A DNA stretch of 64,000 bases from Gammaproteobacteria bacterium (GTDB lineage Bacteria > Pseudomonadota > Gammaproteobacteria > GCA-2400775): assembly GCA_013151045.1 (NCBI GenBank), contig JAADIY010000028.1:8335-72334 (forward strand). Reading direction: 5' to 3'. The number at the start of each line of letters is the position of its first letter. Within the stretch, counting starts at the first letter, position 1. Under the pieces are notes generated by a model. It was not told where the DNA came from, searched no databases, and saw nothing but the letters and a program-made list of their open reading frames with translations. Below, one piece after another: positions 6,143-23,888 of the stretch. The position numbers and the translations under genes are program-made.

Positions 6143-6175
6143 CGCTATCTCAATCCTTTTCGCTATGGCGAATTT

Positions 6176-6215
6176 AACTCGCCATTTGGATGGCGAGTTA
6201 GTTCGTTATTTTTAT
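6176..6215 (+). terminator. rho-independent terminator after mlaA
   Basis: Perfect 10-bp stem aactcgccat / atggcgagtt with loop ttgg, followed by a T-rich tract (ttatttttat). Confidence 0.55.
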
Positions 6216-6310: not shown

Positions 6311-6339
6311 TTGTCTGAAGACCAAGAACAATCTATAAT
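6311..6339 (+). promoter_or_regulatory. sigma70-like promoter
   Basis: TTGTCT (6311-6316), 17-bp spacer, TATAAT (6334-6339); about 40 bp upstream of a small ORF with a GAGG RBS. Confidence 0.4.
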
Positions 6340-6381: not shown

Positions 6382-6504
6382 ATGTACAATATATTTCCAT
6401 TAATTTTGATCCCGGTCTTCATCTTCTTTGGTTTGGCTGTGTTTTTAGCTGGCTCTATGTCTGAAGCCGCAATTAGTTCATCACTCGCTAATAAAGACAA
6501 ATAA
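6382..6504 (+). CDS. small single-TM membrane peptide (40 aa), below ORF-track cutoff
   Basis: GAGG RBS 8 nt upstream of the ATG; MYNIFPLILIPVFIFFGLAVFLAGSMSEAAISSSLANKDK; shares a PLIL(L)IP...F core with the 38-aa peptide at 16131-16247. Confidence 0.5.
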   Translation: MYNIFPLILIPVFIFFGLAVFLAGSMSEAAISSSLANKDK

Positions 6505-6554
6505 GTAATCCGCGCGGCAATTGACCTTAATTGCCCGTCTGAACTTTTTCTAGT

Positions 6555-6582
6555 GCTGATAACCTAAGTTTAGGTTATCAGC
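6555..6582. promoter_or_regulatory. perfect 13-bp palindrome (candidate operator)
   Basis: gctgataacctaa-gt-ttaggttatcagc, 18 bp upstream of the 6600 start codon; no T-run follows, so it is unlikely to be a terminator. Confidence 0.3.
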
Positions 6583-6599
6583 CTTAAGTATCCCACCTA

Positions 6600-7115
6600 A
6601 TGTCTTCTACTGATCATGATCGGCGCCTTATTGCTTTTCTATTAGGCTCAGCATTCTTTTTGTTTATTGGCACAACCCATGGTGTCGTCCAAGTATTGCC
6701 TGGCATACGTGACTGGTTAGTATCAGTTGGAACGCCGGTCAGCGGGCCCGGCCATATGATTGATCCACTTGCGCATGCGCATATCAACTTAGTCGGTGGC
6801 ATGGTGCTGATAAGCATGGCAATGACCTATTATCTATTCCCGCGTATTGCTGGCTGCCAAATTTGGTCTGGTAAATTAATTAGTCATTCTTTTTGGTGGA
6901 CTGCAGCTGGAGTTGTCGGCTTTTACACAACACTCATGGTATTTGGCATCACTGAAGGCCGCTTGATGCGTGCTGGTGAGCTAGAACAACAAGCCGCCGT
7001 GCATACCTACTACGGCATGACCATTAGCGTGCCAGCAACCATTATGGCCATTGGTTTTTGGATGTTTTTTATTAACATCTTCGCAACCGCACGTATTTAT
7101 TTTAAGAACCGCTAA
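6600..7115 (+). CDS. membrane protein resembling the C-terminal helices of heme-copper oxidase subunit I (CcoN-like fragment paralog)
   Basis: 171 aa, 4-5 TM; HAHINLVGG ... YYLFPR motif parallels the HAHLALLGF ... YYGL heme-ligand region of the full CcoN-like gene at 17939-19345; paralog at 21321-21860. Confidence 0.5.
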   Translation: MSSTDHDRRLIAFLLGSAFFLFIGTTHGVVQVLPGIRDWLVSVGTPVSGPGHMIDPLAHAHINLVGGMVLISMAMTYYLFPRIAGCQIWSGKLISHSFWWTAAGVVGFYTTLMVFGITEGRLMRAGELEQQAAVHTYYGMTISVPATIMAIGFWMFFINIFATARIYFKNR

Positions 7116-7128
7116 TCACTTCAATATC

Positions 7129-7647
7129 ATGACCTTAGAGTGTGGTTGTCCAGAACATTACCCAAATGAATGGGATGGGCAAGACATCGATCTTAGTGGG
7201 CACTGTGTTCACTCTCACTCTATACCCACGTTCTTACATATGCCGATTAACTATGCCGGTCATATGATGCGTCAGGCAGCTTCAGTTAATGCCTTAGAAC
7301 TAAAAGAACGCTGGCCAGGTTTTACCCTAACGAGGACGGGCATGCTTGGTGGAGAAATTTTACGTCTTATCGAAGACACAGATTCGCCTTCAAGACTAGT
7401 CAAATATCTACCTATCAACTTCGACGTTCGCTGTGTCATTCATCAAGGCACCATGAAGACATTACGTGACAGTGCACGTGTGGTACAACAAGCTTTATTT
7501 GATGAAGGCAAATTACCCAAAGAAATGTACCTGTGCCATCTTACTTGCCCACGCTGTGCAGAGGAAAGAGGGGGTGACAAAATCTTATTATTACGTCGTT
7601 GGCAAGCCAGTACAACTTTGCAGACGCGTCTAAATAATCGAAAATAA
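7129..7647 (+). CDS. Cys/His-rich hypothetical protein, possible metal binding
   Basis: About 172 aa from an internal ATG (the longer ORF overlaps the previous gene); CGCPEH, HCVHSH and CHLTCPRC motifs. Confidence 0.4.
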   Translation: MTLECGCPEHYPNEWDGQDIDLSGHCVHSHSIPTFLHMPINYAGHMMRQAASVNALELKERWPGFTLTRTGMLGGEILRLIEDTDSPSRLVKYLPINFDVRCVIHQGTMKTLRDSARVVQQALFDEGKLPKEMYLCHLTCPRCAEERGGDKILLLRRWQASTTLQTRLNNRK

Positions 7648-7648
7648 T

Positions 7649-8029
7649 TTATTGCTCTTGAGGCCAAGGCAATTCAAAGTGCAATACTGTCTCTTCTGCA
7701 CCCCGTTTAAGTTTGACATAAAGATACTCGTCGCCTTCTTCAATTTTTACTGCGCGACGAAACACACCGATATGACCATCTTGAACCGATTGCACCCATT
7801 TAGCCGACTCATTTGAACGCAGCCAAACAATTAGGCTCGAAGCAGGAGCACCTTTTTTCTTAGTCGATTTCAGCCAAATTTCATTAAAACCAACCTTAAC
7901 TGGATAAGGGTGCGTCTCTATCTTAAATATGATGTCATTCCATAACTGCGCGGGAACACGTGCCTGGTCCCCTTTACTGCATGCAACCATAGATAATGAT
8001 AATAAAAGAATAGCGATAAGCTGACGCAT
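7649..8029 (-). CDS. lipoprotein, hypothetical
   Basis: 126 aa; lipobox LSMVAC; last gene of the tightly packed minus-strand operon. Confidence 0.45.
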   Translation of the reverse strand: MRQLIAILLLSLSMVACSKGDQARVPAQLWNDIIFKIETHPYPVKVGFNEIWLKSTKKKGAPASSLIVWLRSNESAKWVQSVQDGHIGVFRRAVKIEEGDEYLYVKLKRGAEETVLHFELPWPQEQ

Positions 8030-8034
8030 ATTAC

Positions 8035-8346
8035 TTATTGTTCCTTTGAGTGTTTCATTAAATATTCGATCACTTCATTAATTTCTAGTTCGGTAAGAAC
8101 TGGCATCGCTTGTTGCGAGCGGTGCACTTGCATACGCAATACTACTGCACGCCAATCTTTAGCAGCTTTGGTTTCCGGCTTGGGTGCAACATGACAACTA
8201 CCACAATATTCCACTAATGCAATTTGATTTTCAGAACCTGATGAAAGAGCCCTGTTTTCAATAGTATCCTCTTCAACACTACAACTCGCGCTAAGCATCA
8301 ATACTATAAAGAAAACTAATCTATTTACCTTTGCTCTGGTCACCAT
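8035..8346 (-). CDS. mono-heme c-type cytochrome (lipoprotein)
   Basis: 103 aa; signal/lipobox LSASCS; single CGSCH heme-binding motif. Confidence 0.6.
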   Translation of the reverse strand: MVTRAKVNRLVFFIVLMLSASCSVEEDTIENRALSSGSENQIALVEYCGSCHVAPKPETKAAKDWRAVVLRMQVHRSQQAMPVLTELEINEVIEYLMKHSKEQ

Positions 8347-8791
8347 CGCTATCTTTGCTTACTTTTGAGCTCTCATCAGCATCAGTCTTACTAGAGTTCA
8401 TACCAAACATACTGATCATGGCATAGATAAAACCACCTGAGATAGCGATATATACCAAAGCTAATCCAAAACCCCAATTAAACCATTCTCTTTCGAAACC
8501 TTCACGATCACCCCAGAATGGAAAGCTTAAGAATATCGCGAACAACAATACAGCAATAATCACCGCTACAAACCATTTTGGTATAGCAACTTGAGACTCG
8601 GAAACCTTATCAACCATTTCCCAGTCTTCTAAACCACGCTTAGCCAAACGCTCCTCTTCTGAAGCGTAGCCATAAAAATCATCTGATTTCTTACCCCACT
8701 CTTGCTCAATCGACTCTAAAGGCACCTGTTTGCCCGCTGATTCATCTGGTTCAGCAGACTCGACATTGCTCTCTTGCTTATTAGTAACCAT
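8321..8791 (-). CDS. membrane protein, FixH-like by position (downstream of FixG-like gene)
   Basis: 156 aa with 2 TM and acidic termini; start overlaps the FixG-like stop. Confidence 0.4.
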   Translation of the reverse strand: MVTNKQESNVESAEPDESAGKQVPLESIEQEWGKKSDDFYGYASEEERLAKRGLEDWEMVDKVSESQVAIPKWFVAVIIAVLLFAIFLSFPFWGDREGFEREWFNWGFGLALVYIAISGGFIYAMISMFGMNSSKTDADESSKVSKDSDGDQSKGK

Positions 8792-10101
8792 TATTTTTCC
8801 ACCGCTACGTGATGAACCCGAAAACTACGTCGCCAGCCATCTGTTGATTCTACTTTAACTAAAAATGGATATAAACCAGGTTCTAAATCATGACTGATAT
8901 TGAATTTGACATATTTTCTCTCAGCCGTATCAAATGACGCTATCGTTGACTGAAAACGGTATGCATCTTCATCCAAGCCCTCTATAGAGACTGAAACCTC
9001 AGCGGGCTGATAAAGCTTATGTGAAAGCGAAACACGAAATTCATTTTCATTTCGCCCTTGCGCTGTCTGTGTATCATAAACCGAGAACCGGTAAGGCTCA
9101 TAGTTGACCATGCCCCAACTAAACATACCAACACCTAGTGTTACCAATGGAAGGATCCAAAAGAAACGTGACCGTAGCGCCATCATCGCATTGCGTGGTT
9201 GTTCTTTTTTAACCTGACGTTCTCCCATCGCAAAACTCAACAAACTAGCCCCCATTTTACGTGACCCGCGAATGCTCTCACATGCTGTAATGCATTCGCC
9301 ACAATTAATACATGCATCATAAGTCTGCGTCTTTCGTGGGTCTATCTCAACAAAGCAAGACGTCTGACAAAAATTACAGCGCGCGCACTCATCAGCAGCC
9401 GATGTATCGTGAACAATATGTAATGTCTCTTTGGTCTTAAATGAATGCTGCCATACTTTATATACGCACATAAAACGACAAAAAAAATGTCGTAGGTAGG
9501 CAACATCAACAAATATAATTAATACACAAATACCATAAATATAATATTCCGAACCGTTCATTCCATCAGCTGATTGAAATGTAACAAAATCAAAAAGAGT
9601 ATCTAGTGGATAAAAATAAAGCATCGGGATAAAACCAGCCACCATAGAGAAACCTAGCAATATCGCACCCAAACCCAACCAGTTTACGATTTTATTTTTA
9701 CCTGACGATACTTTCATTGGCGCACCATCAAGCATCACCTCTGAATTCTTACCAAGCAGACGCCGATGCCAATAGTTAGCCCATTCAGACATAGTATTTT
9801 GTGGGCAAGACCATCCGCAAAATGCCGTCCCTAAAGCTGAATACGTAATAATTAAAGCGCTCGACACCATCAACCAAAAACCCATGATAATGAAAAAGTC
9901 ACCAAAATCAATTTGCCGATCTAGCACCACAAAGGCACCCGCTAAGATATCGATACGGAAAAAGCCTAAAACAGGAATCAATATTGCCACCAACACAGTA
10001 ATTGCTTGCAACAGTCTCCTGCGTCGGTGTATTTTTTGTCCTGGGCTATTACTATTGACAGCAATAATTGGGATATCAGAAAGAGAAGATGACTGACTCA
10101 T
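8791..10101 (-). CDS. ccoG: FixG/CcoG-like membrane-bound 4Fe-4S ferredoxin (cbb3 oxidase assembly / cupric reductase family)
   Basis: 436 aa; N-terminal TM helices; two CxxCxxCxxxC motifs (CARCNFCQTSC, CINCGECITAC); C-terminal Ig-like periplasmic domain. Confidence 0.75.
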   Translation of the reverse strand: MSQSSSLSDIPIIAVNSNSPGQKIHRRRRLLQAITVLVAILIPVLGFFRIDILAGAFVVLDRQIDFGDFFIIMGFWLMVSSALIITYSALGTAFCGWSCPQNTMSEWANYWHRRLLGKNSEVMLDGAPMKVSSGKNKIVNWLGLGAILLGFSMVAGFIPMLYFYPLDTLFDFVTFQSADGMNGSEYYIYGICVLIIFVDVAYLRHFFCRFMCVYKVWQHSFKTKETLHIVHDTSAADECARCNFCQTSCFVEIDPRKTQTYDACINCGECITACESIRGSRKMGASLLSFAMGERQVKKEQPRNAMMALRSRFFWILPLVTLGVGMFSWGMVNYEPYRFSVYDTQTAQGRNENEFRVSLSHKLYQPAEVSVSIEGLDEDAYRFQSTIASFDTAERKYVKFNISHDLEPGLYPFLVKVESTDGWRRSFRVHHVAVEK

Positions 10102-12737
10102 AACTGTTGCACTCGCTCATTAAGCAATAAATTGGTAATAGGTCGCGCCTGATAAAGTGGACTAACACTTTTTAACTTGGCAATATATTTTTTAATAGCC
10201 TCATCATCATTATTTTTCTGAGCGATACCTAACAGAGCTTCTAAGGTTAATAGGTGATCAGGCTTAATCAATAAAATTTTCTCTAAGCTAGCTTGTTTAA
10301 CTTTTGGCGTAATACCCACACGAGACAAAGATGCCAACATCTTGTCTGCAAGAGTTCCGCTAATCCATTGATCCTTCGGGTTGCCTCTGTAAGCAAATTG
10401 TAGGAAACGCTGCGCTCGGGCCTCATCACCACTTAGTTGAGCCAACCAACTACGCATCGATGCATCGGCAGCAATATAGGCTCGCTCAAAAAGCTCTGCT
10501 TCATTCTTATTCACCTGCAAATGTTGAGCTGCGAGTTCTGCGCTAGGCCTTTGTTTGATTAACCACTCTAGCACTTCTTGAAAATTTATTTCCCCAGCGT
10601 AGCGTACGCGAGGGAGGTGATATTCTATCTGTGGCCGCCATTCATCTTCAATTAATTTGGCGGGGCTTTTAATACGACCAATATAACGACCTAACCAAGT
10701 CCATACACCCTCACCTCCTGTTTGTTTCGCATTAGATTCTAGCACTTTGATATTTTTCAATAGTCGACCAGCATCAACGGTAACACCAGGGCTACCCACC
10801 ATCGCCAACCTAAAACCATCAACAAATAATGCGGCACCAGGGAAGCTATGCTCAAACGTGTTCAATACAATTTGCAAAGCAGTTAAATCAAATTGATTAA
10901 GAGCCAACCATTGCACATAAAGACCATCTTGATTTAAGCGTGATTTAACACGATCAAATTGTTGTTGCGATAACAAACGACTACGACCAACTAAATCGGG
11001 ATGGAATAGATCCCCGACAATGACATCGTAATATTCATTAGAACGCATTAAATAACGGCGCGCGTCATCATTAATAATAGTAATCTTATTACTAATATCT
11101 CTATTGCTTTGAGCAAACCATTTATCAGCAGACTCTATTGCGCCTTTTGATATTTCAACAGCAGTAATATCCACATCAAAGTCTAAGGCTGCTGATGCTG
11201 AAATTCCAGTGCCCAAACCAAGAAACAATACTTTTTCTGCATCGGGGTTTAATAACAAGGGTAAGCGTGCTTGGTTCTTCTGAGCGACAACTGCCGTGGG
11301 CTCAGTTGAAGCGTCCATACGTTGCAGGTCTGATAACAGTAAACGCTGCCCCCGCTGCGTTTCGACAACATGGGTAGTCGCTATTGCATCTTCGTGTAGC
11401 GACAATACAGATTGGCTATTGGCATGAGCGACAGGAAGCAGCTCTGTAACCGTTGGCAGGTCCGGCAAGAAAAAAAGAGTGCTTGCGAGTATGGGTGATA
11501 CTAGCCAAAATAACCTCGCTTTACACCAGCGCATACCGGCAACAAATAAGATGATTGCTGCTATTAATATAGTTAGCGGGGTACCGACTGTAGGCATTAA
11601 TACAAATCCTGCCAACAAAGCACCAAAGCCAGCACCAATGGCATTAACACCGTAGAACCAAGCGCCTGCACTACTGGGGTCTTCATAACCTCGAACGAGT
11701 AAAGGCAACCATGCGCCTAAGCAAAAGGTCACGACAACCGTCACCATAGCTAAAGCAACACCCTGCTTTATTAGCGCGTTGATTAAAGAGCTGTACTCAA
11801 TTGTTTCGGCCCATGCCGATACGGATGCCAAGCTAATCAAAGAAATTATCGCTGCTAACGCTGCCGTGACAGGCAACAGATTCAACCAGAGTCGTCTCGC
11901 CCCCCATTGTGATAAAACACTGCCACATGCTGTGCCGGCCAGGAATATCGCTATTATTATAGCTAGTACATATTCGGTACGAAGTAAGGCCATACCGTAG
12001 AGTCTAGCCCATGCGACTTGTAGCATCAGTGCGGCTGCACCGATCAAGGCATAGCTTAGTAAATCTAAGACAGCCGGTTTTACTGAAAAGTTCCTACTAA
12101 CACTCTGCTTTAGGGGTGATTTTATGGCGATCAAAAAAAATAAAAGGCCTGTTATCGCACCTAATAGTGCAATGGTATATAAACTATTCGCCCAACCTAA
12201 TACTGGCAACAACAATACCGGCACTAACGCACCAAATGCTGCGCCCAAGGTATTGGCCGCATAGAGATGGGAAACCGTAAGCTGTGTGTCTTTTATCGCG
12301 GCAAGAACAAGTGGAAAGCCTAAGCCCATCGCCGTCGCTGGCAATAACATAAAAAATAGTGCCGCAACGAGCTCAATGCTATGCCATGCTGACAACTGGA
12401 TATCACTAGTCGCCGTGATTAAAAATTCTGACCAATATTGATTTATCGAAGGTAGCCCTACAGCATAAAGCGCTACCAATATTTCAATTAAGGCTAGGAC
12501 CATCAAAGGTCTCGCTAGGTGTAATAAATACCGTTTACCAAGAATACTACCTAGGCCTAGACCAAACATGAAAGCGCTAACTGTAATGACGACGCCAAAG
12601 TTACTGACGCCAAACTGTAGACTTAACATGCGCATCCATAGCACTTCGTAGGCTAGTGCTACGAGGCCAGAAATACCGTAGAGGATGAGCAATAGAAAGA
12701 TGAGAGGTGTTTTATCTGACCTTATCATGGTCATCAA
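10098..12737 (-). CDS. fused MFS-type membrane domain / spermidine-synthase-like (SAM-dependent aminopropyltransferase fold) / TPR protein
   Basis: 879 aa; about 12 TM N-terminal; central domain with GLGTGISA and VIVGDLFHPD spermidine-synthase motifs; C-terminal TPR-like repeats. Confidence 0.7.
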   Translation of the reverse strand: MMTMIRSDKTPLIFLLLILYGISGLVALAYEVLWMRMLSLQFGVSNFGVVITVSAFMFGLGLGSILGKRYLLHLARPLMVLALIEILVALYAVGLPSINQYWSEFLITATSDIQLSAWHSIELVAALFFMLLPATAMGLGFPLVLAAIKDTQLTVSHLYAANTLGAAFGALVPVLLLPVLGWANSLYTIALLGAITGLLFFLIAIKSPLKQSVSRNFSVKPAVLDLLSYALIGAAALMLQVAWARLYGMALLRTEYVLAIIIAIFLAGTACGSVLSQWGARRLWLNLLPVTAALAAIISLISLASVSAWAETIEYSSLINALIKQGVALAMVTVVVTFCLGAWLPLLVRGYEDPSSAGAWFYGVNAIGAGFGALLAGFVLMPTVGTPLTILIAAIILFVAGMRWCKARLFWLVSPILASTLFFLPDLPTVTELLPVAHANSQSVLSLHEDAIATTHVVETQRGQRLLLSDLQRMDASTEPTAVVAQKNQARLPLLLNPDAEKVLFLGLGTGISASAALDFDVDITAVEISKGAIESADKWFAQSNRDISNKITIINDDARRYLMRSNEYYDVIVGDLFHPDLVGRSRLLSQQQFDRVKSRLNQDGLYVQWLALNQFDLTALQIVLNTFEHSFPGAALFVDGFRLAMVGSPGVTVDAGRLLKNIKVLESNAKQTGGEGVWTWLGRYIGRIKSPAKLIEDEWRPQIEYHLPRVRYAGEINFQEVLEWLIKQRPSAELAAQHLQVNKNEAELFERAYIAADASMRSWLAQLSGDEARAQRFLQFAYRGNPKDQWISGTLADKMLASLSRVGITPKVKQASLEKILLIKPDHLLTLEALLGIAQKNNDDEAIKKYIAKLKSVSPLYQARPITNLLLNERVQQL

Positions 12738-13353: not shown

Positions 13354-14424
13354 CTAACCTTTTTCATCGGCAATATTTTTACTACAACGAAACCCGTAAA
13401 AATCAGACGCATAATGTGGAAAGGAATAATTTCGGTGATAAGCGGACGTTGCAAACGGATCGCTTTTAAATGATCCACCGCGCATCACAACATAAGTTGC
13501 TTCAACTTCAACTAAGTCGACCACTTTCAAAGATTTATCTAATGTTGTTGTCGCTCTACCTACTTTCGGTATAAACAACTCAGCCTGCGCATCAGCACCT
13601 TGATATGCTACAAACTCATCTGCTGTCCATTCACTAACATTACCTGCCATATCATGAACACCATATGGGCTTTTACCCGTCGGATAACGAGTGACATCGG
13701 TTGCCGAACCAACACTATAGTAGGTATTAAGATTGTCAGCGTCCATCAAATTACCCCATGGCCAACGACGACCATCTTCACCCCGTGCAGCTTTTTCCCA
13801 TTCCGCCTCTCGCGGTAAGCGTGCATCGACCCACTGACAATATCCTGCTGCGTCATACCAGGAAACCATGGTAACCGGTGCCAATAAATCCCCCGGCCTC
13901 ATTCGCCCACCACTCCAGTGTAATGGCGGTCTATGTTTAGTATCCGCAACGAAACGCGCATATTCTGCATTAGTTACCGGATACTTTCTAATCTCATAGG
14001 CGTCAGTGCTAGCTCTATGTGCTGGCTTGTCTTGATCATTCGCTAGATGGCGATCAGTGCCCATTATAAACTCGCCTGCTGGAATTTCTATCCAAGCACC
14101 GAGCTCTGACCACATATCGGGGGTTAATAACTCTTCCGCCTGCTCAATACTATAAGTAGTTTGAACAGTTTTTAATGCCTCGTTATGTTGATGCCGAATA
14201 ATATCCTCACCCGCAGCTCGAATTCGAGACTCCATTTCAGAGATATCGTAAGTTGCACTCGCACGCATTTGATCGATACGACTGCCACCTAGCTGGACAA
14301 GATGATAAAACGCGAAAACAATTGCAGCGGCAGCACACGTCACCAGTGTTGCTGCTAAAAAAACCTTTCGCTTCGCGCGCTCCATGCCATCAATTTGAGG
14401 AGTTTGTGTAAACTTTTTGGCCAT
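13354..14424 (-). CDS. FGE-sulfatase family protein (formylglycine-generating-enzyme / SUMF1 / NirV-like), membrane anchored
   Basis: 356 aa; N-terminal TM; FGE motifs (YEIRKYPVTNAEYARF, GYCQWVDARLPREAEWEKAARG, RGGSF, HRNYSFP). Confidence 0.7.
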   Translation of the reverse strand: MAKKFTQTPQIDGMERAKRKVFLAATLVTCAAAAIVFAFYHLVQLGGSRIDQMRASATYDISEMESRIRAAGEDIIRHQHNEALKTVQTTYSIEQAEELLTPDMWSELGAWIEIPAGEFIMGTDRHLANDQDKPAHRASTDAYEIRKYPVTNAEYARFVADTKHRPPLHWSGGRMRPGDLLAPVTMVSWYDAAGYCQWVDARLPREAEWEKAARGEDGRRWPWGNLMDADNLNTYYSVGSATDVTRYPTGKSPYGVHDMAGNVSEWTADEFVAYQGADAQAELFIPKVGRATTTLDKSLKVVDLVEVEATYVVMRGGSFKSDPFATSAYHRNYSFPHYASDFYGFRCSKNIADEKG

Positions 14425-16928: not shown

Positions 16929-17877
16929 TTACTTCAAACTCAAGACATAATCCATCAAGTAACGGATTTCGCTGTTAGGCGCATAATCAGGTACCAATGG
17001 TGGATAAAGACTCTTGCCTGCAGCGTACTCTTTATAATCAGCACGCCATTGATCAAAGTCAATCTCGTTACCGTTAGCATCAACTTCGCCCCATAAATAA
17101 TCGAAGCGAGGCATAATTGAATGCGGCTGAACTAATCTTGGATTGAAAAAATGCATCATCATCCATTCTTTCGATGAGTTACGCGAACCAACATGCAATA
17201 AATCAGGAGCCTTACGATCAGAACCAAACGCGGTTGGAGCCTCACCATTAAAATCACCTAGACGCGGCGGCAAACCAAAATATTGCCAATCCTGAGTTTG
17301 CTCAGGAAGCAGCGTATGACACCTCGCAGCCTTCACGTACGAACATCGTTTTACCGCTACCAACGTGACGCTTATCAGTATCCGCGGCTGAGGCTAATAC
17401 TGCCGCAGCAGTCCAATCACGAGTCGCGCTAGCATTTTCAATATAGGGGAAGGTTTCACCTTCGTAATCACCACGCGACACCAAGAATACTGCGCCTTCA
17501 TCTGAAGTCGCAACACCAACTTGACCATCATCAGCACTTAATGCTGCGACCTCAGTACCAAGGATACCCGGATTACGAACCGCACTAGGAAACGGGGTTC
17601 CCGGCACATAGACATAAGCGTCAACCGGATCAATATCAGCACCTGTGACAGGATCTTTCTTGATAGTAACAGTTAAAGGCTTACCTTTCCCTTGTAGGAA
17701 CGGATCCTCGTAGGAAAAACCTGAGTTATGGCCATAAGACAAACCTTTAACCAAACCTGTTTCAGTCACGCCAACACTATAAATAGTTAAGCTAGGCATA
17801 TATAAGGTGATCATCATTGAACCACCTAATGCGATACCAAACATGCGGGTACCAATTTTATACTCTCTAAAAGCCAT
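16929..17877 (-). CDS. CcoO/FixO-like (NorC-like) mono-heme subunit with long N-terminal insertion; frame break inside the heme-binding motif
   Basis: Upstream frame ends ...TMFVREGC EVSYAAS*; the downstream frame continues ARCHTLLPEQ ... APDLLHVGSRNSSKEWMMMHFFNPRLVQPHSIMPRFDYLW, colinear with the CcoO stretches REGCYNCHSQMIRPF and [38 protein letters not shown]. Only 4 nt lie between the two Cys codons. Confidence 0.55.
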
Positions 17878-17938: not shown

Positions 17939-19345
17939 TTAACGTTCGTATGCGATCTCATGTGGCAAACGACCTACTGGCACTGGCGTACCTGCACGTG
18001 CTGTCATCCACATGTTATAGAGCCAAACAACGTTACCAGTAAATACCATCGTACCGCCGACCCAACGAGCAATCATATAAGGATGCTCTGCAATAACCAC
18101 GTCGATATAAGGCACTTCGTAGATCTTCGCCGCACCCTGAATCAAACCAGCAATAGTGATTGAGATCCAGTAGGTTGCAAAACCAATCAATAAGAACCAG
18201 AAGTGGAAATTAGCTAGCGCCAATGAGTACAGCTTACGACGCAAGATCGTTTGTAGGCCGTAGTACACAGCAGCAGCTTCTAGGAAAGTAGAGAAACCTA
18301 GCAAGGCCAAATGAGCATGAGCCACAATCCAACCAGTACCATGTACATACCAGTTAATGGCACGCGTTTGCTGGAAACCACCCTGCATATTTAGCGGGAT
18401 AGCTAACATAACACCCGTAATGGTAAAACGAATTTCGATGTTATCAACAAAGTAATGCCATTTACCGGTCATGGTAAGGAGCAGGTTAGATACAAACGCA
18501 ATCGCTGGCACCAAAATCAACACACCCTCAACAGAGGCGAAAGATTTTAGCCACTCAGGCAATGGTGATGACATCAAATGATGCGCTGCTGGTGTTGAGT
18601 AAAATACAACCACTGACCAGAAATGCAAGTGACCAATACGATGAGAGTACAGTGGATTACCGGTAATCTTCGGCACCGTATAATAGGCAATCGCCGCTGC
18701 CACCGGGGTAATCCACAAGCCAAGAATGTTATGGGCGTGCCACCAGGTCAAATAGGCTTCTGTCAAACCGGTCAGAGAAAAGTACTCCGGCAGGTTACCG
18801 ACCAGCACCACAATCATCAACATGAATATGGCCGAACCAAAAAACCAGTTGGTGGTGTAAATACCCTGCGTCTTACGATGAACGATGGTCATCCAGACAT
18901 TGATCCCCAATGGCAACAGCACTGCGAACAGGATAATCAGATCAATAGGCCATGGAAAGTCAGTGTACTCACGTCCGGAAGTAATACCGGCCCACATCAG
19001 GCACAAGGCAACAGAGAGACCAGCGTTCCAGTTAAAACAGGTCCAGATACCAAGCTTTTCAGACCAAAGTTTGGTATTACCCAAAGCAGGCGTGATGTAC
19101 ATAAAGGCCATGGCAAAGGCCATTGAGATCCAGCCGAAGATAACGGCCATGACGTGAACTTGGCGCATATGACCAAAGGCAAACATATAGCTACCGGTTA
19201 CAAAATCCGGGAAAGCGAGTTTTGCAGCATTAAAAGAACCCAAGGCAGTCCCAATAATAAACCAGATGATGGACGAAAACCCAAAAAAGACAGCCGCTGA
19301 ACCTGCGGGTATATCTTCGTTCTTCGCAAAAAGATACTTGAACAT
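17939..19345 (-). CDS. cbb3-type (C-family) heme-copper oxidase subunit I, CcoN-like, divergent
   Basis: 468 aa, 12 TM; conserved His ligand pattern (FGHMRQVH; WWHAHNILG; PAAHHLM; VAHAHLALLG) matches CcoN, not the NorB HLWVEG pattern. Confidence 0.8.
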   Translation of the reverse strand: MFKYLFAKNEDIPAGSAAVFFGFSSIIWFIIGTALGSFNAAKLAFPDFVTGSYMFAFGHMRQVHVMAVIFGWISMAFAMAFMYITPALGNTKLWSEKLGIWTCFNWNAGLSVALCLMWAGITSGREYTDFPWPIDLIILFAVLLPLGINVWMTIVHRKTQGIYTTNWFFGSAIFMLMIVVLVGNLPEYFSLTGLTEAYLTWWHAHNILGLWITPVAAAIAYYTVPKITGNPLYSHRIGHLHFWSVVVFYSTPAAHHLMSSPLPEWLKSFASVEGVLILVPAIAFVSNLLLTMTGKWHYFVDNIEIRFTITGVMLAIPLNMQGGFQQTRAINWYVHGTGWIVAHAHLALLGFSTFLEAAAVYYGLQTILRRKLYSLALANFHFWFLLIGFATYWISITIAGLIQGAAKIYEVPYIDVVIAEHPYMIARWVGGTMVFTGNVVWLYNMWMTARAGTPVPVGRLPHEIAYER

Positions 19346-20315: not shown

Positions 20316-20768
20316 TTATTTATAAATACGCAGGCTCGCCATTGCATCGTCATAAACCGTGGCAGACTCAAACTGACCGCGGTGAAACACATACTGACGT
20401 TTTTTACCTGACATATCCAAACCAGTAAGCCCAAACGACTTTCCGGCGTAGTCAGAAAAAAAGCGCACCTCTTTAACCAGAGACACGTGATCGTTGCTAC
20501 GCAGCCTGAGCGTGACATGCTGCTTACTCACACTTAGCGCAACGGGCGCACTAGGCAGCAGCATCAAGCGTCCAGACAATATTCGATTAGCACCGATAAA
20601 ACCCATAAAACAGGCAAGAAACATTAGCAAATAAGCTAAGGGTTGATTGCCTTGGTACCATAACACTAAGGCATAGGCACCAAGCAGTATCACTACTGGC
20701 AGATAAAGCAGTGCATCCCAAGCCGCGCCACGACGATCGGGCGCCAAACTATAATCTTGTTTCGCCAC
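20316..20768 (-). CDS. membrane protein, hypothetical
   Basis: 150 aa, 2 N-terminal TM plus soluble domain. Confidence 0.45.
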   Translation of the reverse strand: MAKQDYSLAPDRRGAAWDALLYLPVVILLGAYALVLWYQGNQPLAYLLMFLACFMGFIGANRILSGRLMLLPSAPVALSVSKQHVTLRLRSNDHVSLVKEVRFFSDYAGKSFGLTGLDMSGKKRQYVFHRGQFESATVYDDAMASLRIYK

Positions 20769-20771
20769 TAC

Positions 20772-21290
20772 TTAACCTGCTTCAGGGTTTAGCTTCGCAG
20801 CCAGTGTCTCAGATATGATGGCATCCATTTCACCGTACAACATACGGCCTGGTCGCTTAAACTTCACCTGCTTATCCGCGCCAATAACGAATGTCCAAGG
20901 ATCACCTTGAACGCCAAAGGCGGTGAACGCTTCTGGGTTTTGATACTGATCCATATGCAAAAACAACACATCGTCTTCATATTTATTCAATATCGCTTTA
21001 AGCATCTGTAATTGTTTATCACATACTGTGCAATGCCCTGGGGTAGCAAACTCTAGCAATATTGTTTTATTCTGCGCCAAGGCCTCATCAATCGACAATT
21101 GATACATACGCGCATCTGGCTGGCGGTACGTCGTGATACGACTAAAATCACCACTAACATCTGCTAATGTCTTGGTCTTCAATGACGGCGCATACTCACC
21201 TACACGTAACTGGCCTTCAGGCGTAATGTCACACGCACTCAGCATCATTGTTAACGCTGCAGCCGTCAGCAAACTCGCATATGATTTCAT
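20772..21290 (-). CDS. thioredoxin-fold lipoprotein (TlpA/ResA/Sco-like thiol-disulfide oxidoreductase)
   Basis: 172 aa; lipobox MLSAC; FATPGHCTVCD CxxC motif. Confidence 0.55.
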   Translation of the reverse strand: MKSYASLLTAAALTMMLSACDITPEGQLRVGEYAPSLKTKTLADVSGDFSRITTYRQPDARMYQLSIDEALAQNKTILLEFATPGHCTVCDKQLQMLKAILNKYEDDVLFLHMDQYQNPEAFTAFGVQGDPWTFVIGADKQVKFKRPGRMLYGEMDAIISETLAAKLNPEAG

Positions 21291-21320: not shown

Positions 21321-21860
21321 TTAAGCGCTGCTAGGAACATCTTTTTCCCAACCAACACAGCTGCGAAAAACGTTATAACCCCAGATACAATTTGCCAATA
21401 GCACCATAGAACCAAAAATTCCCATAGCCGCGAGCCAGGGCTTAATAACCGCTTCCACCTCACTAGGAGGCAAACTCACGCTAGCAGTTCCACCCAATAT
21501 GCCGGCAATGGTAAATAAACTCACCATACCGATCAAACCAATATTGTGTATCCAGAAATGCACTTTAACCAGCTTCAAACTATAAATCGGTCGTTTCACC
21601 AAACGCGGCACAAAATAATAGACCGCAGCAAAAATCGCCATTTCCACCCAACCCAATAAATTAACATGGGTATGAGCACGCACTATCAACTGACCATGAG
21701 CACGGTGATCGACAAAGTGGCGTAGCTCGGCGATGCCGCCCATCAAAGCACCCCAAGAAAAGCCAATGATGCTATAAATGATACAAGCGTAGAGAAACAA
21801 TAAGGTATAGCGTGTGTACTCTACGTCGTCCTCCCAAGGAGCATTGTTCGAAACACTCAT
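21321..21860 (-). CDS. membrane protein resembling the C-terminal helices of heme-copper oxidase subunit I (paralog of 6600-7115)
   Basis: 179 aa; RAHTHVNLLGWVEMAIFAAVYYFVPR motif; start ATG overlaps the stop of the upstream cytochrome c (ATGA). Confidence 0.5.
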   Translation of the reverse strand: MSVSNNAPWEDDVEYTRYTLLFLYACIIYSIIGFSWGALMGGIAELRHFVDHRAHGQLIVRAHTHVNLLGWVEMAIFAAVYYFVPRLVKRPIYSLKLVKVHFWIHNIGLIGMVSLFTIAGILGGTASVSLPPSEVEAVIKPWLAAMGIFGSMVLLANCIWGYNVFRSCVGWEKDVPSSA

Positions 21861-22497
21861 TGCTCAGCATCCGGACCTTGGCCAACACCACCTGTAGGCG
21901 CAGAGGTATCACCACTAAAATCTTTGGTACGGATATCTTGATACTTATCCTTCCAGCTTTCGGGCGCCCAAATGCTCAACATACTGTCGATGAAAACCGA
22001 TTCCCCTTTAGGCGGAATAGGTGAAGTCGAAGCACCCTGCTGAGAACGCAGCTCTGATAAGAACGTTGCAACGGCATAGAGCTTATCTTCGCCAAGCTCA
22101 GCAACATAAGCCGCTTCTTTACCTAAACCATGATCAATCGTCGCCGCATGATAAGTTTCTTTATAAATTGGCTCGGGATCGCTTAAAAAGCTCCCCAGCC
22201 ATTCATGACTACGGCGCGAACCAATCCAATACCATCAAGCGTTGTTTGACCGCCCATACTCGTGCCCGACAAAAAAGCACGATGACAAGAACTACATCCA
22301 TTACCCTTAAAAATTCGATGGCCTAAGTTACCATTTTCAGATAGGTCAAAACTCGTTAGATTCGAAAAAATCTGTTTCTTAGTAGTCAATCGATAACCTT
22401 CAAGCGCCACATAGCCTACTAATGCAACCACTATAAAAATCCCGGCGATGCCAAATAATACTTTTTCGCCACGCTTTAGACTAGATTTTGCCGCCAT
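21857..22497 (-). CDS. membrane-anchored mono-heme c-type cytochrome, two apparent homopolymer frameshifts
   Basis: N-terminal TM plus CSSCH in the 22183-22497 ORF; the sequence continues in two other frames (DPEPIYKETYHAATIDHGLGKEAAYVAELG ... then ESVFIDSMLSIWAPESWKDKYQDIRTKDF ... DAEQ*); shifts sit at the A5/C4 runs at 22185-22197 and the C5 run at 22003-22007. Confidence 0.5.
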
Positions 22498-22601: not shown

Positions 22602-23366
22602 TTAGTGCTTATAGGGCACATGACGCGCAGGTAAGCGCGAGTTACCCAAGCTATATGGAGAAGCTTCTTTGGTTGATAAATAAGCAGCAACATTATTAAT
22701 GTCTTCATCAGACATATTTTTAGCCACATTACGCATGACTGCTTGTGGATCGTTCGCACGCGAACCATCACGCCATTTCTTCATCTGCGCAACAAGGTAA
22801 GTATATTTTTGCTGGCCAATCATTGGGAACATTGGCTCCACACCACGACCGTTATAGTCATGGCAAGAACGGCATGCTGCAACGCTTTTTTCGCCGATAC
22901 CGTGATTAACAATCGACTTACCAAGATATGTTTCACCCACCTCAACACCATTCGCTCTCAAAGTGTTCAAATCAGAAACAGACTTATCAACAGTTTCACG
23001 ATCATGCTGCCATTCAGCAATATAAGCAGAGACATCCAAACGCTCTTGAGCTGTTAAGCCCTTAGCATTTGAGTTCATGATGTACATAGTCGTGTCTTCA
23101 CGCTTGTCATCTGCATAGTCTTGCAGCTGCTTAGCGATAAACTGGAAAATTTGGCCCGCTAAACGAGGAGTACCTAAATCGTCGCTACCCATACCATCAG
23201 GCATATGGCAACCGGAACATGCTGGAACGCCAGTGTCTTCCTTGCCGTTGTTATAAATATTTTCACCATTTGCCAAATCAACGGTAAGACCGCCAGCGGA
23301 CGCAGAACTTACTGCAAACGCAAAAGCAAAAAGCGAACCCACTGCAAACTTAGTTGAGTAACGCAT
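22602..23366 (-). CDS. di-heme cytochrome c4-like protein
   Basis: Signal peptide MRYSTKFAVGSLFAFAFAVSSASA with a GGAGGG RBS; two CxxCH motifs (CSGCH, CRSCH). Confidence 0.7.
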   Translation of the reverse strand: MRYSTKFAVGSLFAFAFAVSSASAGGLTVDLANGENIYNNGKEDTGVPACSGCHMPDGMGSDDLGTPRLAGQIFQFIAKQLQDYADDKREDTTMYIMNSNAKGLTAQERLDVSAYIAEWQHDRETVDKSVSDLNTLRANGVEVGETYLGKSIVNHGIGEKSVAACRSCHDYNGRGVEPMFPMIGQQKYTYLVAQMKKWRDGSRANDPQAVMRNVAKNMSDEDINNVAAYLSTKEASPYSLGNSRLPARHVPYKH

Positions 23367-23888
23367 TACAACACCCTCCAAAAAAACTGTGTCGAGGCCG
23401 TGACCGACCTTTTATTAACTTCATGACTACCGCATTCAACGAACATTTCGCTGCAGCAATCTATAATTCAAATTTGGGAAGCTTCAAGCCTACCAAATAA
23501 CGGTTCGCTTAAGAGCTTTTCTTCAGCAAAAACCAAGCAAATCCCCAAGCTAGTGGGAACCAAATCGCGTAAAGTATGACTACGTCTGCAGTCTCTAGCA
23601 TGGCTAACCTCTGATTATCTTAATGATTCATAAAATGAATAAAACGGGCGACTGTATACCATGAAAACAGCACTCAGCGCAAGCTCAGTTATGCCATTAT
23701 AGCGTCAATATTGGCACTGTTTTTAACCCAAACCACCCTTCTAATAGATTGATTTTTAACGAAAATTAAGCTGTCAATGAAAAACAAAAACAGCACAGCA
23801 AAAAATTTTAGCCCAACTGCATTAGATGACCACAGACAGAGTTTCCGGTATGCTCCGCAGCCATCTCCAACGGCGGCAATTCTAAGCC

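Follow-up and report, generated by a model that had tools for sequence, protein, structure and literature searches.

In a 64,000-nucleotide stretch of genome from a gammaproteobacterium of the GTDB lineage GCA-2400775 (GenBank assembly GCA_013151045.1, contig JAADIY010000028.1, positions 8,335 to 72,334 of the forward strand; hereafter the window), the gene at 6600..7115 (+, ATG start) encodes a 171-residue protein with four transmembrane (TM) helices that resemble helices IX-XII of subunit I of the heme-copper oxidases (HCOs). The open reading frame (ORF) is as the original prediction, made from the sequence alone, had described it. On the comparisons below the protein is a single-repeat member of the HCO subunit I superfamily, and not an oxidase subunit I proper. 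As to function, our favored explanation, to which we give about an even chance, is that it forms a trimeric, subunit-I-like scaffold binding heme and/or copper for a divergent CcoN/FixO oxidase encoded 11 kb away, in an accessory or biogenesis role.

Profile and pairwise comparisons place the protein with COX1-type helices and not in an unrelated membrane family. Pfam COX1 (PF00115) matches residues 12-141 over profile positions 309-430 of 436 (E 6.3e-10; 38.9 bits, above the gathering score of 34.8). The original prediction had noted a parallel between the block HAHINLVGG...YYLFPR and the full-length CcoN-like protein of the window, and BLASTP indeed pairs this block with residues 340-449 of the latter (E 4e-6). 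Because BLASTP returns two further, separate alignments, to residues 202-300 (E 9e-5) and 70-124 (E 4e-4), the protein resembles all three four-helix repeats of subunit I, the last one best, and alignments with the family profile confirm the likeness to all three. The earlier description as a homolog of the C-terminal helices only was therefore right in that this is a stand-alone homolog of helices IX-XII with an HxH pair, and incomplete in missing the resemblance to every repeat. In a profile of 38 homologs, H52-x-x-D55 and H59-x-H61 align with H337-x-x-D340 and H345-x-H347 of Pseudomonas stutzeri CcoN (3mk7_A), where, in the published cbb3 structure, H345 ligates heme b3 and H347 is one of the ligands of heme b. 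His59 and His61, the counterparts of the helix-X pair of subunit I, are invariant and are predicted to bind heme.

Conservation and the predicted structure agree with this assignment. Among 38 diverse family members 38 columns are invariant, including G24, T25, Q31, R37, the block G49-P-G-H-M-I-D-P-L-A-H59, H61, N63, G66, G67, Y77, S90, Y109, G116, G120, Y138 and N159 (the central motif reads GPGH52MID55PLAH59AH61xNxxGG), and H96, E119 and H135 are nearly so. An AlphaFold2 (AF2) model (predicted local distance difference test 86.3; predicted template modeling score 0.80) shows four long TM helices, with one more, short helix in the loop that first enters the periplasm; this is the predicted fold of one four-helix repeat of subunit I. 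Lysine and arginine counts in the loops fit a topology with both termini inside, so that the histidines would lie close to the periplasm, as they do in oxidases. The topology is that of CcoN helices IX-XII (3mk7_A) and of NorB/qNOR, and the H-x-x-D...H-x-H motif is in the CcoN register; unlike CcoN, the protein has an operon of its own and family-specific invariants (GPGHMIDP, His96, Glu119, His135). Since it has four of the twelve helices of the subunit I core, plus one short helix, and lacks the helices that would carry the helix-II histidine and the CuB ligands (one histidine in helix VI, two in helix VII), the protein, as read from its sequence, cannot be an oxidase on its own. The NCBIfam ccoN, CtaD and CyoB models match the same stretch with scores far under their cutoffs; the ccoN equivalog TIGR00780 gives 35.9 bits against a cutoff of 583 and covers model positions 342-446 only. 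DUF2871 (PF11070; gathering score 27.4) does not match, and Pfam and NCBIfam scans gave no match to known HCO biogenesis families.

A C-terminal piece of subunit I encoded alone could also be a fragment, either split off to complement a truncated subunit I, as the original prediction had allowed, or left over from a decaying ccoN. Similarity is restricted to the C-terminal third of the COX1 profile, and automatic annotation reads "cbb3-type cytochrome c oxidase subunit I". We nevertheless regard this explanation as refuted. The CcoN-like gene (17939..19345, -) is complete: its product spans COX1 positions 3-436 of 436 (E 1.6e-73) with its own helix-II, VI, VII and X histidines, so no complement is needed. 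Hundreds of family members have this length and carry invariant motifs of their own that CcoN lacks, the AF2 model is confident and compact, and the ratio of nonsynonymous to synonymous substitution rates (dN/dS) between the gene and its close relatives is 0.014-0.075, indicating strong purifying selection.

The gene is also not the one-off oddity that it had seemed to be, and belongs to a large and widespread family. A search of a large protein collection at E <= 1e-3 yields at least 586 clusters formed at 90% identity; the best 120 matches listed are nearly all 160-190 residues long, with identities of 52-95%, and the few that come with a source name read "cbb3-type cytochrome c oxidase subunit I" or "cytochrome oxidase". 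Among reference genomes taken one per species, relatives are encoded at 354 loci; the locus counts below refer to the best 80 of these, with neighbor genes counted within 6 kb. Almost all of the 80 come from uncultured Gammaproteobacteria (Thiotrichales, Chromatiales, Ectothiorhodospiraceae, Thiohalomonadales and metagenome-assembled genomes (MAGs) from biocathodes) and from Zetaproteobacteria/Mariprofundaceae, the exceptions being one MAG labeled Devosia sp. and one labeled only Proteobacteria. Protein identity between the window and North Pond-type "NORP" and "uncultured Thiotrichales" MAGs is 91-92%; the exact protein turned up in no public assembly, and close relatives were taken in its place. 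The carriers are sulfur-, iron- and electrode-oxidizing Gamma- and Zetaproteobacteria. More distant families of stand-alone proteins of 135-167 residues that match COX1 at about 308-436 occur in the representative library (P0309, P0318, P0325, P0333, P0334, P0338, P0347, P0349 and P0356), and two of them also touch DUF2871 under its threshold of 27.4; some distant relatives of 150 residues score 20-24 bits with that model. Single-repeat homologs of subunit I may therefore form a broader, unrecognized superfamily that includes a Pfam DUF.

The same module occurs in nature fused in threes. A family-profile search of 1.84 billion representative proteins gave only 345 matches, and its top was dominated by proteins of 625-1122 residues with three matched stretches. 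These triple-repeat proteins come from Chloroflexota and from Gaiellales (Actinomycetota), examples being the MDQ2806379.1 cluster and HET7171001.1. In 25 of them every stretch covers essentially the whole 171-position profile (about 4-167), and the 4-TM protein of the window is up to 40% identical to individual repeats. Because the four-TM unit has both termini inside, tandem fusion requires no extra helix. Each repeat matches the C-terminal part of Pfam COX1, and the three do not follow the profile colinearly. That these proteins are ordinary oxidases was considered and rejected, since the repeats match only this C-terminal part and a normal COX1 gene stands in the same operons.

Gene context ties the triplicated proteins to the same kind of oxidase. 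All four triple-repeat loci examined encode a COX1 (474-507 residues), a FixO fused to cytochrome c, four to nine small genes, and then the triple-repeat gene, last or near-last; their neighbors are YtkA, FixS and Caa3_CtaG genes, or CcmF-like and HemA genes, and one triple-repeat protein ends in a SCO1/SenC domain (E 1.5e-36). The COX1 proteins of these four operons are 34-36% identical over the full length to the CcoN-like protein of the window (E 1e-84 to 1e-89), which by these alignments belongs to a divergent C-type subfamily common to the Chloroflexota and Gaiellales operons. Because the operons' COX1 resembles the CcoN-like protein and the repeats resemble the 4-TM protein, module and divergent C-type oxidase travel together in three phyla. 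The triple-repeat proteins thus share with the 171-residue protein the link to one oxidase subfamily and repeats that span its whole profile; they differ in being one polypeptide with differentiated repeats and an extra C-terminal TM module, and in that the cytoplasmic partner described below was not found in their loci. This extra module (..P.RY.G..P.R.RR.P...E..G..GFPGxGW...G....G..L..GP...WA..P..), with more TM helices, is shared by all triple-repeat proteins (P0212-P0248; loci L089-L092); some triple-repeat proteins run on for 300-450 further residues, and at L091 the triple-repeat gene is followed by the CcmF-like and HemA genes.

The differentiation of the repeats is informative about where cofactors might sit. 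At profile position 59 repeat 1 has Asn, Tyr or rarely His, followed by His at 61 (26/26), with His also at 27 (21/26) and 52 (23/26). Repeat 2 has His at both 59 and 61 (25/25 each), and repeat 3 has His at 59 (24/24) and Gln at 61 (22/24); both of these have Gln at 27 and a residue other than His at 52. The resulting pattern, xH-HH-Hx, fits what is expected if each site pairs the second histidine of repeat i with the first histidine of repeat i+1. Under such sharing two sites (1-2 and 2-3) would be complete and one (3-1) lost, and the unfused protein, which keeps both histidines, would form three equivalent sites as a homotrimer. In the CcoN-like protein the helix-II histidine aligns with position 59 and the canonical helix-VI CuB histidine with position 61; the oxidase pattern, H-H-HH, might then be a cyclic permutation of the triple-repeat pattern, which we take as a lead only. 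That the extra His27/His52 pair is limited to repeat 1 points to a further metal site in this repeat.

In oxidases the two helix-X histidines, two residues apart, point to opposite faces, and each ligates a different heme that is completed by another repeat. By analogy, three copies of the 171-residue protein would assemble into a 12-helix, subunit-I-like core with cofactor pockets between protomers. His61 of one copy would share a pocket with His59 of its neighbor, much as His347 and His345 of CcoN helix X each point to a different heme. The pockets would be capped by the invariant periplasmic cluster (His27/Gln, His52-Met53, Asp55, Glu119, His135) and would most likely contain heme b, a copper site being possible. 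Styrene oxide isomerase (8pnu) is a 4-TM homotrimer that binds heme b at its subunit interfaces; it has no detectable sequence relationship to the 171-residue protein, catalyzes a different reaction and has no link to an oxidase, and serves as an analogy only. Less certain steps are that the trimer holds or hands over heme and/or copper for the nearby divergent CcoN/FixO oxidase, and that its cytoplasmic partner supplies or senses the ligand or, through a Cys4 site, a metal.

The twelve helices of oxidase and NO-reductase subunit I have pseudo-threefold symmetry, which has long been taken to suggest triplication of a four-helix unit, and we know of no free-standing four-helix unit of subunit I that has been studied so far. 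The family described here supplies such a unit, a 171-residue module with heme-ligand histidines. Because the module exists both unfused and as natural tandem triplicates, trimerization and heme or copper binding of one repeat are directly testable. We consider it possible, although on balance doubtful, that the protein is a self-assembling third of the HCO catalytic subunit, forming a C3-symmetric 12-helix core with three inter-subunit heme or heme and copper sites, and that the fused proteins of Chloroflexota and Actinomycetota show this symmetric assembly turning asymmetric. As part of the same tentative proposal, the triple-repeat pattern, with its four helix histidines, would be the oxidase pattern (helix II H; helix VI H; helix X HxH) cyclically permuted, with the extra three-histidine set of repeat 1 lying by a one-histidine heme site. 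If true, the family would be a living, experimentally tractable model of how the binuclear center arose when a four-helix heme protein was triplicated, and might constitute a new class of heme(-copper) membrane enzyme.

A second gene, absent from the original account, accompanies the 4-TM gene. Beginning 13 nt past its stop, the gene at 7129..7647 (+) encodes a 172-residue cytoplasmic protein of GyrI-like/SOUL fold, with no signal peptide and no TM segment. It matches Pfam PF20603 "Bact_hydrolase" (E 4e-12) above the cutoff; the "hydrolase" name appears to derive from relatives such as Lin2189 and to be a putative label. The fold is that of small-molecule and heme binders. Homologs of about 170 residues share invariant C5, C7, C140 and C143 (CxCP...CPxC) and conserve W15, H37-M38-P39, W62-P63, R89 and Q120, and it is this Cys4 site and the obligate pairing with a membrane protein that set the partner apart from other GyrI-like and SOUL-HEBP small-molecule binders. 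In 70 of the 80 loci the partner gene immediately follows the 4-TM gene, mostly at 30 nt or less, and the pairing persists in metagenomic loci that differ widely in their other genes, one such position being between rpmE and a DEAD-box helicase gene.

The gene has been noticed before, as annotation only. In Ca. Tenderia electrophaga a gene labeled "truncated CcoN" was reported (Eddie et al., bioRxiv 10.1101/2022.05.06.490989); ALP51744.1/Tel_00520 and ALP51724.1/Tel_00415 carry this label in a conserved "cbb3-1/cbb3-2" region (bioRxiv 10.1101/2022.05.06.490989; mSystems 2017, PMC5371394), and the block was termed "a sort of alternative complex IV" in both papers. Gene order in the window is that of the Tenderia block as given in the Fig. 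2B legend: copy 2 (a second 4-TM gene) with a thioredoxin, CcoN/CcoO, a spermidine-synthase-like protein, a CcoG-like protein, a two-TM protein, a monoheme cytochrome, a lipoprotein, the partner and truncated CcoN. The partner homolog there, P0180, is ALP51743.1/Tel_00515, and the genes for the 4-TM ortholog and the partner share 4 nt and are equally abundant as mRNA. The repeat nature, the partner fold, the triplicated relatives and the conserved histidines went unanalyzed in those papers, and the repeat-level interpretation is new relative to the literature searched. Nothing relevant was found in the literature on PF20603 or DUF2871, on homologs of subunit I that are truncated or have four helices, or on an origin by triplication; the gene is mentioned only in the Tenderia papers, and two comparative-genomics papers on iron oxidizers do not mention it.

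Expression data from Ca. Tenderia bear on whether the protein is a working part of the oxidase or serves it otherwise. Length-adjusted log2 mRNA levels are 13.25 for CcoN and 12.91 for CcoO, and 9.30 for the truncated CcoN ortholog, 9.14 for the partner, 9.64 for copy 2 and 10.35 for the CcoG-like gene; between electrode potentials the log fold change is -0.5 to -0.7 for the 4-TM/partner cassette, -0.8 to -1.0 for the CcoG-like genes and +0.15 to +0.23 for CcoN/CcoO (PMC5371394, Tables S1 and S3). Cassette mRNA is thus about 15-fold below that of the catalytic subunit and responds like the CcoG-like genes, not like CcoN/CcoO. These mRNA levels, together with the shared regulation with CcoG-like genes, favor a sub-stoichiometric accessory role over that of a subunit.

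The competing proposal, the "partial cbb3 oxidase / alternative complex IV" of Eddie et al., makes the protein a redox subunit present stoichiometrically in a novel terminal-oxidase complex: a small b-type cytochrome that passes electrons between c-type cytochromes encoded nearby and the CcoN-like subunit, or that reduces a substrate on its own. The retained heme-ligand histidines, the operon of copy 2 with diheme and monoheme cytochromes c, the position of triple-repeat genes within structural-gene operons, and the conservation and expression of the whole block in an electroautotroph all speak for it. Besides the mRNA levels and regulation just described, the classic biogenesis types among the associated genes (the SCO1 fusion, YtkA, FixS, CcoG-like) count against it, as does the location of the cassette away from oxidase genes in some genomes; bis-histidine sites in a homotrimer would moreover leave no open coordination site. 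We judge this alternative unlikely, if worth keeping in view, and an accessory or biogenesis role more likely.

The genes that accompany the family are of the cofactor-delivery type: CcoG reduces cupric copper, SenC/Sco and YtkA/CtaK act as copper chaperones, and cofactor insertion requires CcoS/FixS. Known HCO biogenesis factors include these proteins, CcoH, and CtaM/DUF420 and Surf1, which act in maturation of the heme a3/CuB site. The 171-residue protein is like them in being a small membrane protein encoded beside oxidase genes and expressed below the structural subunits, and its family is fused or adjacent to several of them; none of them is homologous to subunit I, as this protein is. 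Of the three roles raised in the original prediction, assembly is accordingly the best supported: its suggestion of a heme-binding assembly intermediate gains from the CcoG-like, SCO1/SenC, YtkA and FixS links and from the low mRNA of the ortholog, and is plausible on evidence that is indirect.

A biogenesis role need not involve heme. The periplasmic His27, His52-Met53, His59, His61 and His135 could instead make a CuB-like Cu(I) site, and the protein a copper insertase for the CuB center, with the Cys4 site of the partner (plus His37-Met38) as cytoplasmic Cu(I) donor. The GHM and HMP motifs and the four cysteines are invariant; in the triple-repeat proteins only repeat 1 keeps His27 (21/26) and His52 (23/26) along with the second helix histidine, a three-histidine set beside the single histidine of repeat 2; and the SCO1 fusion and the YtkA, CcoG-like and thioredoxin-like neighbors are in keeping with copper. 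Set against this, the histidines align precisely with the CcoN heme ligands, the partner fold is that of organic-ligand and heme binders and not of known copper chaperones, and the membrane segments of the 4-TM protein contain no MxxxM-type or CxxC motif. A copper relay to the exclusion of heme therefore seems rather improbable to us.

Signaling is less probable by far. A membrane heme protein might sense O2, NO or redox state and signal through the partner, as GyrI-like domains are typically effector-binding modules of transcription factors and the cassette sometimes stands alone among housekeeping genes. Neither protein has a DNA-binding, signaling, kinase, GGDEF or other output domain, and both are constantly small across hundreds of homologs; the regulator proposed in the original prediction finds no backing here, and we think a sensor very unlikely.

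Several observations sit uneasily with the favored scaffold and with its heme-sharing details. In two runs the weak alignment of repeat 1 with CcoN falls in different registers, which leaves the helix-II mapping uncertain, and the sole low-confidence stretch of the AF2 model, residues 49-53, is the invariant GPGHM loop. Copper is as compatible as heme with the histidine- and methionine-rich motifs. With the partner in the cytoplasm and the conserved histidines on the periplasmic side, a direct hand-over path is not obvious, a difficulty that no model explains. At L005, L006 and L008 the cassette has no oxidase gene within 8 kb, and about 10 of the 80 loci are orphan paralogs with no partner. 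Finally, the mRNA ratios were obtained in another organism and do not give the stoichiometry of the proteins.

The orphan loci (L020, L024, L025, L029, L031, L035, L042, L047, L059 and L008) yielded no partner even to a profile search with filters off. Downstream of their 4-TM genes there is typically a short HPF/YfiA-like gene together with one for a BAX-inhibitor-like membrane protein, or else NhaA, and in the pairs L046/L047 and L059/L062 one MAG holds both partnered and orphan copies.

Whatever its mechanism, the 4-TM protein is a conserved and so far uncharacterized part of the gene block of a divergent cbb3-like oxidase. This block ranks with the most strongly expressed loci of an electrode-oxidizing autotroph and is shared with marine iron and sulfur oxidizers, and the role of the protein bears on how these carriers build or run their terminal oxidase. 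The label "cbb3-type cytochrome c oxidase subunit I" on hundreds of database entries is wrong as functional annotation and inflates metagenomic oxidase counts.

The CcoN-like protein is the likely client or associate of the 4-TM protein. It reaches 225 bits with TIGR00780 (cutoff 583) and has the CuB-ligand and helix-II histidines. Its helix VI reads HAH (WWHAHNILG) where canonical cbb3 oxidases have YGH, and a GHM motif before the helix-II histidine echoes the GPGHM of the small protein. The 171-residue gene is on the opposite strand from this oxidase operon, as had been said. The adjoining FixO/CcoO-like gene (16929..17877, -; Pfam FixO matches the downstream half) is frameshifted inside its CxxCH motif (TGC GAG G/TGT CAT): ...VREGCE and CHTLLPEQ... 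are out of frame, with two bases missing, and the halves are ORFs at 17302..17877 and 16929..17363 (-), the break falling within 17300-17365. The frameshift could be an assembly error, a real pseudogene or recoding.

The naming of the 171-residue gene as copy 1 implied a second copy, and a 179-residue 4-TM paralog of the COX1 C-terminal part is present at 21321..21860 (-; COX1 E 1.1e-18; DUF2871 23.3 bits, under the gathering score of 27.4). It is 35% identical to copy 1 over 63 residues and keeps HxH, without the GPGHMIDP loop, His96, Glu119 and His135. Its operon includes a thioredoxin-like lipoprotein, a 150-residue protein and mono- and diheme cytochromes c (20772-21290, 20316-20768, 22183-22497 and 22602-23381), an arrangement also found at L004 and in Ca. 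Tenderia. In both of these the small genes stand within the conserved block of the oxidase.

Upstream of the 171-residue gene, a terminator-like hairpin of the MlaA gene (6174-6201) precedes a sigma-70-like promoter site at 6311..6339 (+; TTGTCT-17-TATAAT, 10/12 matches in a consensus scan, its function inferred from the match), which argues for separate transcription units. The -10 TATAAT and a CTTGT -35 core are kept in six relatives. The first operon gene, at 6382..6504 (+), encodes a 40-residue single-TM peptide, MYNIFPLILIPVFIFFGLAVFLAGSMSEAAISSSLANKDK, whose GAGGAA ribosome-binding site and frame are conserved in relatives; it is under purifying selection (dN/dS 0.03-0.14), was found by tblastn in 9 of the 80 genome loci, including some Chromatiales, and has no match in Pfam or NCBIfam. 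The peptide, the 171-residue protein and the cytoplasmic partner are co-transcribed. A promoter-like site, the small peptide and the palindrome, all named in the original prediction, are thus present.

Two hairpins fill the 95-nt spacer between the 40-residue ORF and the 171-residue gene (RNA fold of 6505-6602, minimum free energy -30.8 kcal/mol, z -5.8). The first, at 6512..6538 (+), is weakly terminator- or attenuator-like and is followed by a T-rich stretch; relatives have a hairpin of different sequence at the same place. The second, at 6552..6584 (+), is the palindrome, with perfect 13-nt arms (6555-6567 and 6570-6582), 16 nt upstream of the start codon. Four of the 12 pairs of its consensus stem are altered on both sides yet still pair in the L014/L001 lineage, which argues for a structure rather than a sequence-specific operator. 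No Rfam family matched. A repeated element of the repetitive extragenic palindromic (REP) type was rejected, as the palindrome occurs once in the window, and an intrinsic terminator was rejected, as no T-tract follows the stem; a role in mRNA stability, processing or translation control seems probable. At L010 (1743-2759), from one close relative, the loop of this hairpin carries an insertion of about 60 nt, and the 4-TM gene and partner are not adjacent but separated by about 1 kb, pointing to a small inserted element.

Convergent with the cassette, and adjoining it in about half of the 80 genomes, is a cluster that includes a CcoG-like gene. Its first member, at 7649..8029 (-; 48/80 loci), encodes a 126-residue lipoprotein with invariant W77, Q79, Q82-D83-G84, G87 and R90; it has no Pfam, NCBIfam or Protein Data Bank (PDB) match even by profile and is not assignable to FixH, YtkA or PCuAC. 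There follow a 103-residue monoheme c-type cytochrome (CxxCH) at 8035..8346 (-; Pfam DHC and Cytochrome_CBB3 matches; 28/80) and a 156-residue two-TM protein at 8321..8791 (-; 42/80) with no family match in Pfam or NCBIfam. The membrane polyferredoxin at 8791..10101 (-; Fer4_5 and Fer4_18 matches; 41/80) scores 104.7 bits with TIGR02745 ccoG (E 5e-30), below the cutoff of 316.7, and so is CcoG-like and not an equivalog. An 879-residue fused MFS/spermidine-synthase-like membrane protein (10098..12737, -; NF037959 MFS_SpdSyn, 85 bits against a cutoff of 40) was counted in 35 of the 80 loci, a number limited by flank length, and a 120-residue protein lies near the cassette in 22 of them. MFS-type CcoA and copper-dependent FGE are conceivable parallels for the fused protein and for the FGE-sulfatase/EgtB-like protein of the same block. 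Further along the window the conserved block continues with an FGE-sulfatase/EgtB-like protein (13354..14424, -), cytochromes c, the FixO-like and CcoN-like genes, and copy 2 with the thioredoxin-like lipoprotein and two cytochromes c.

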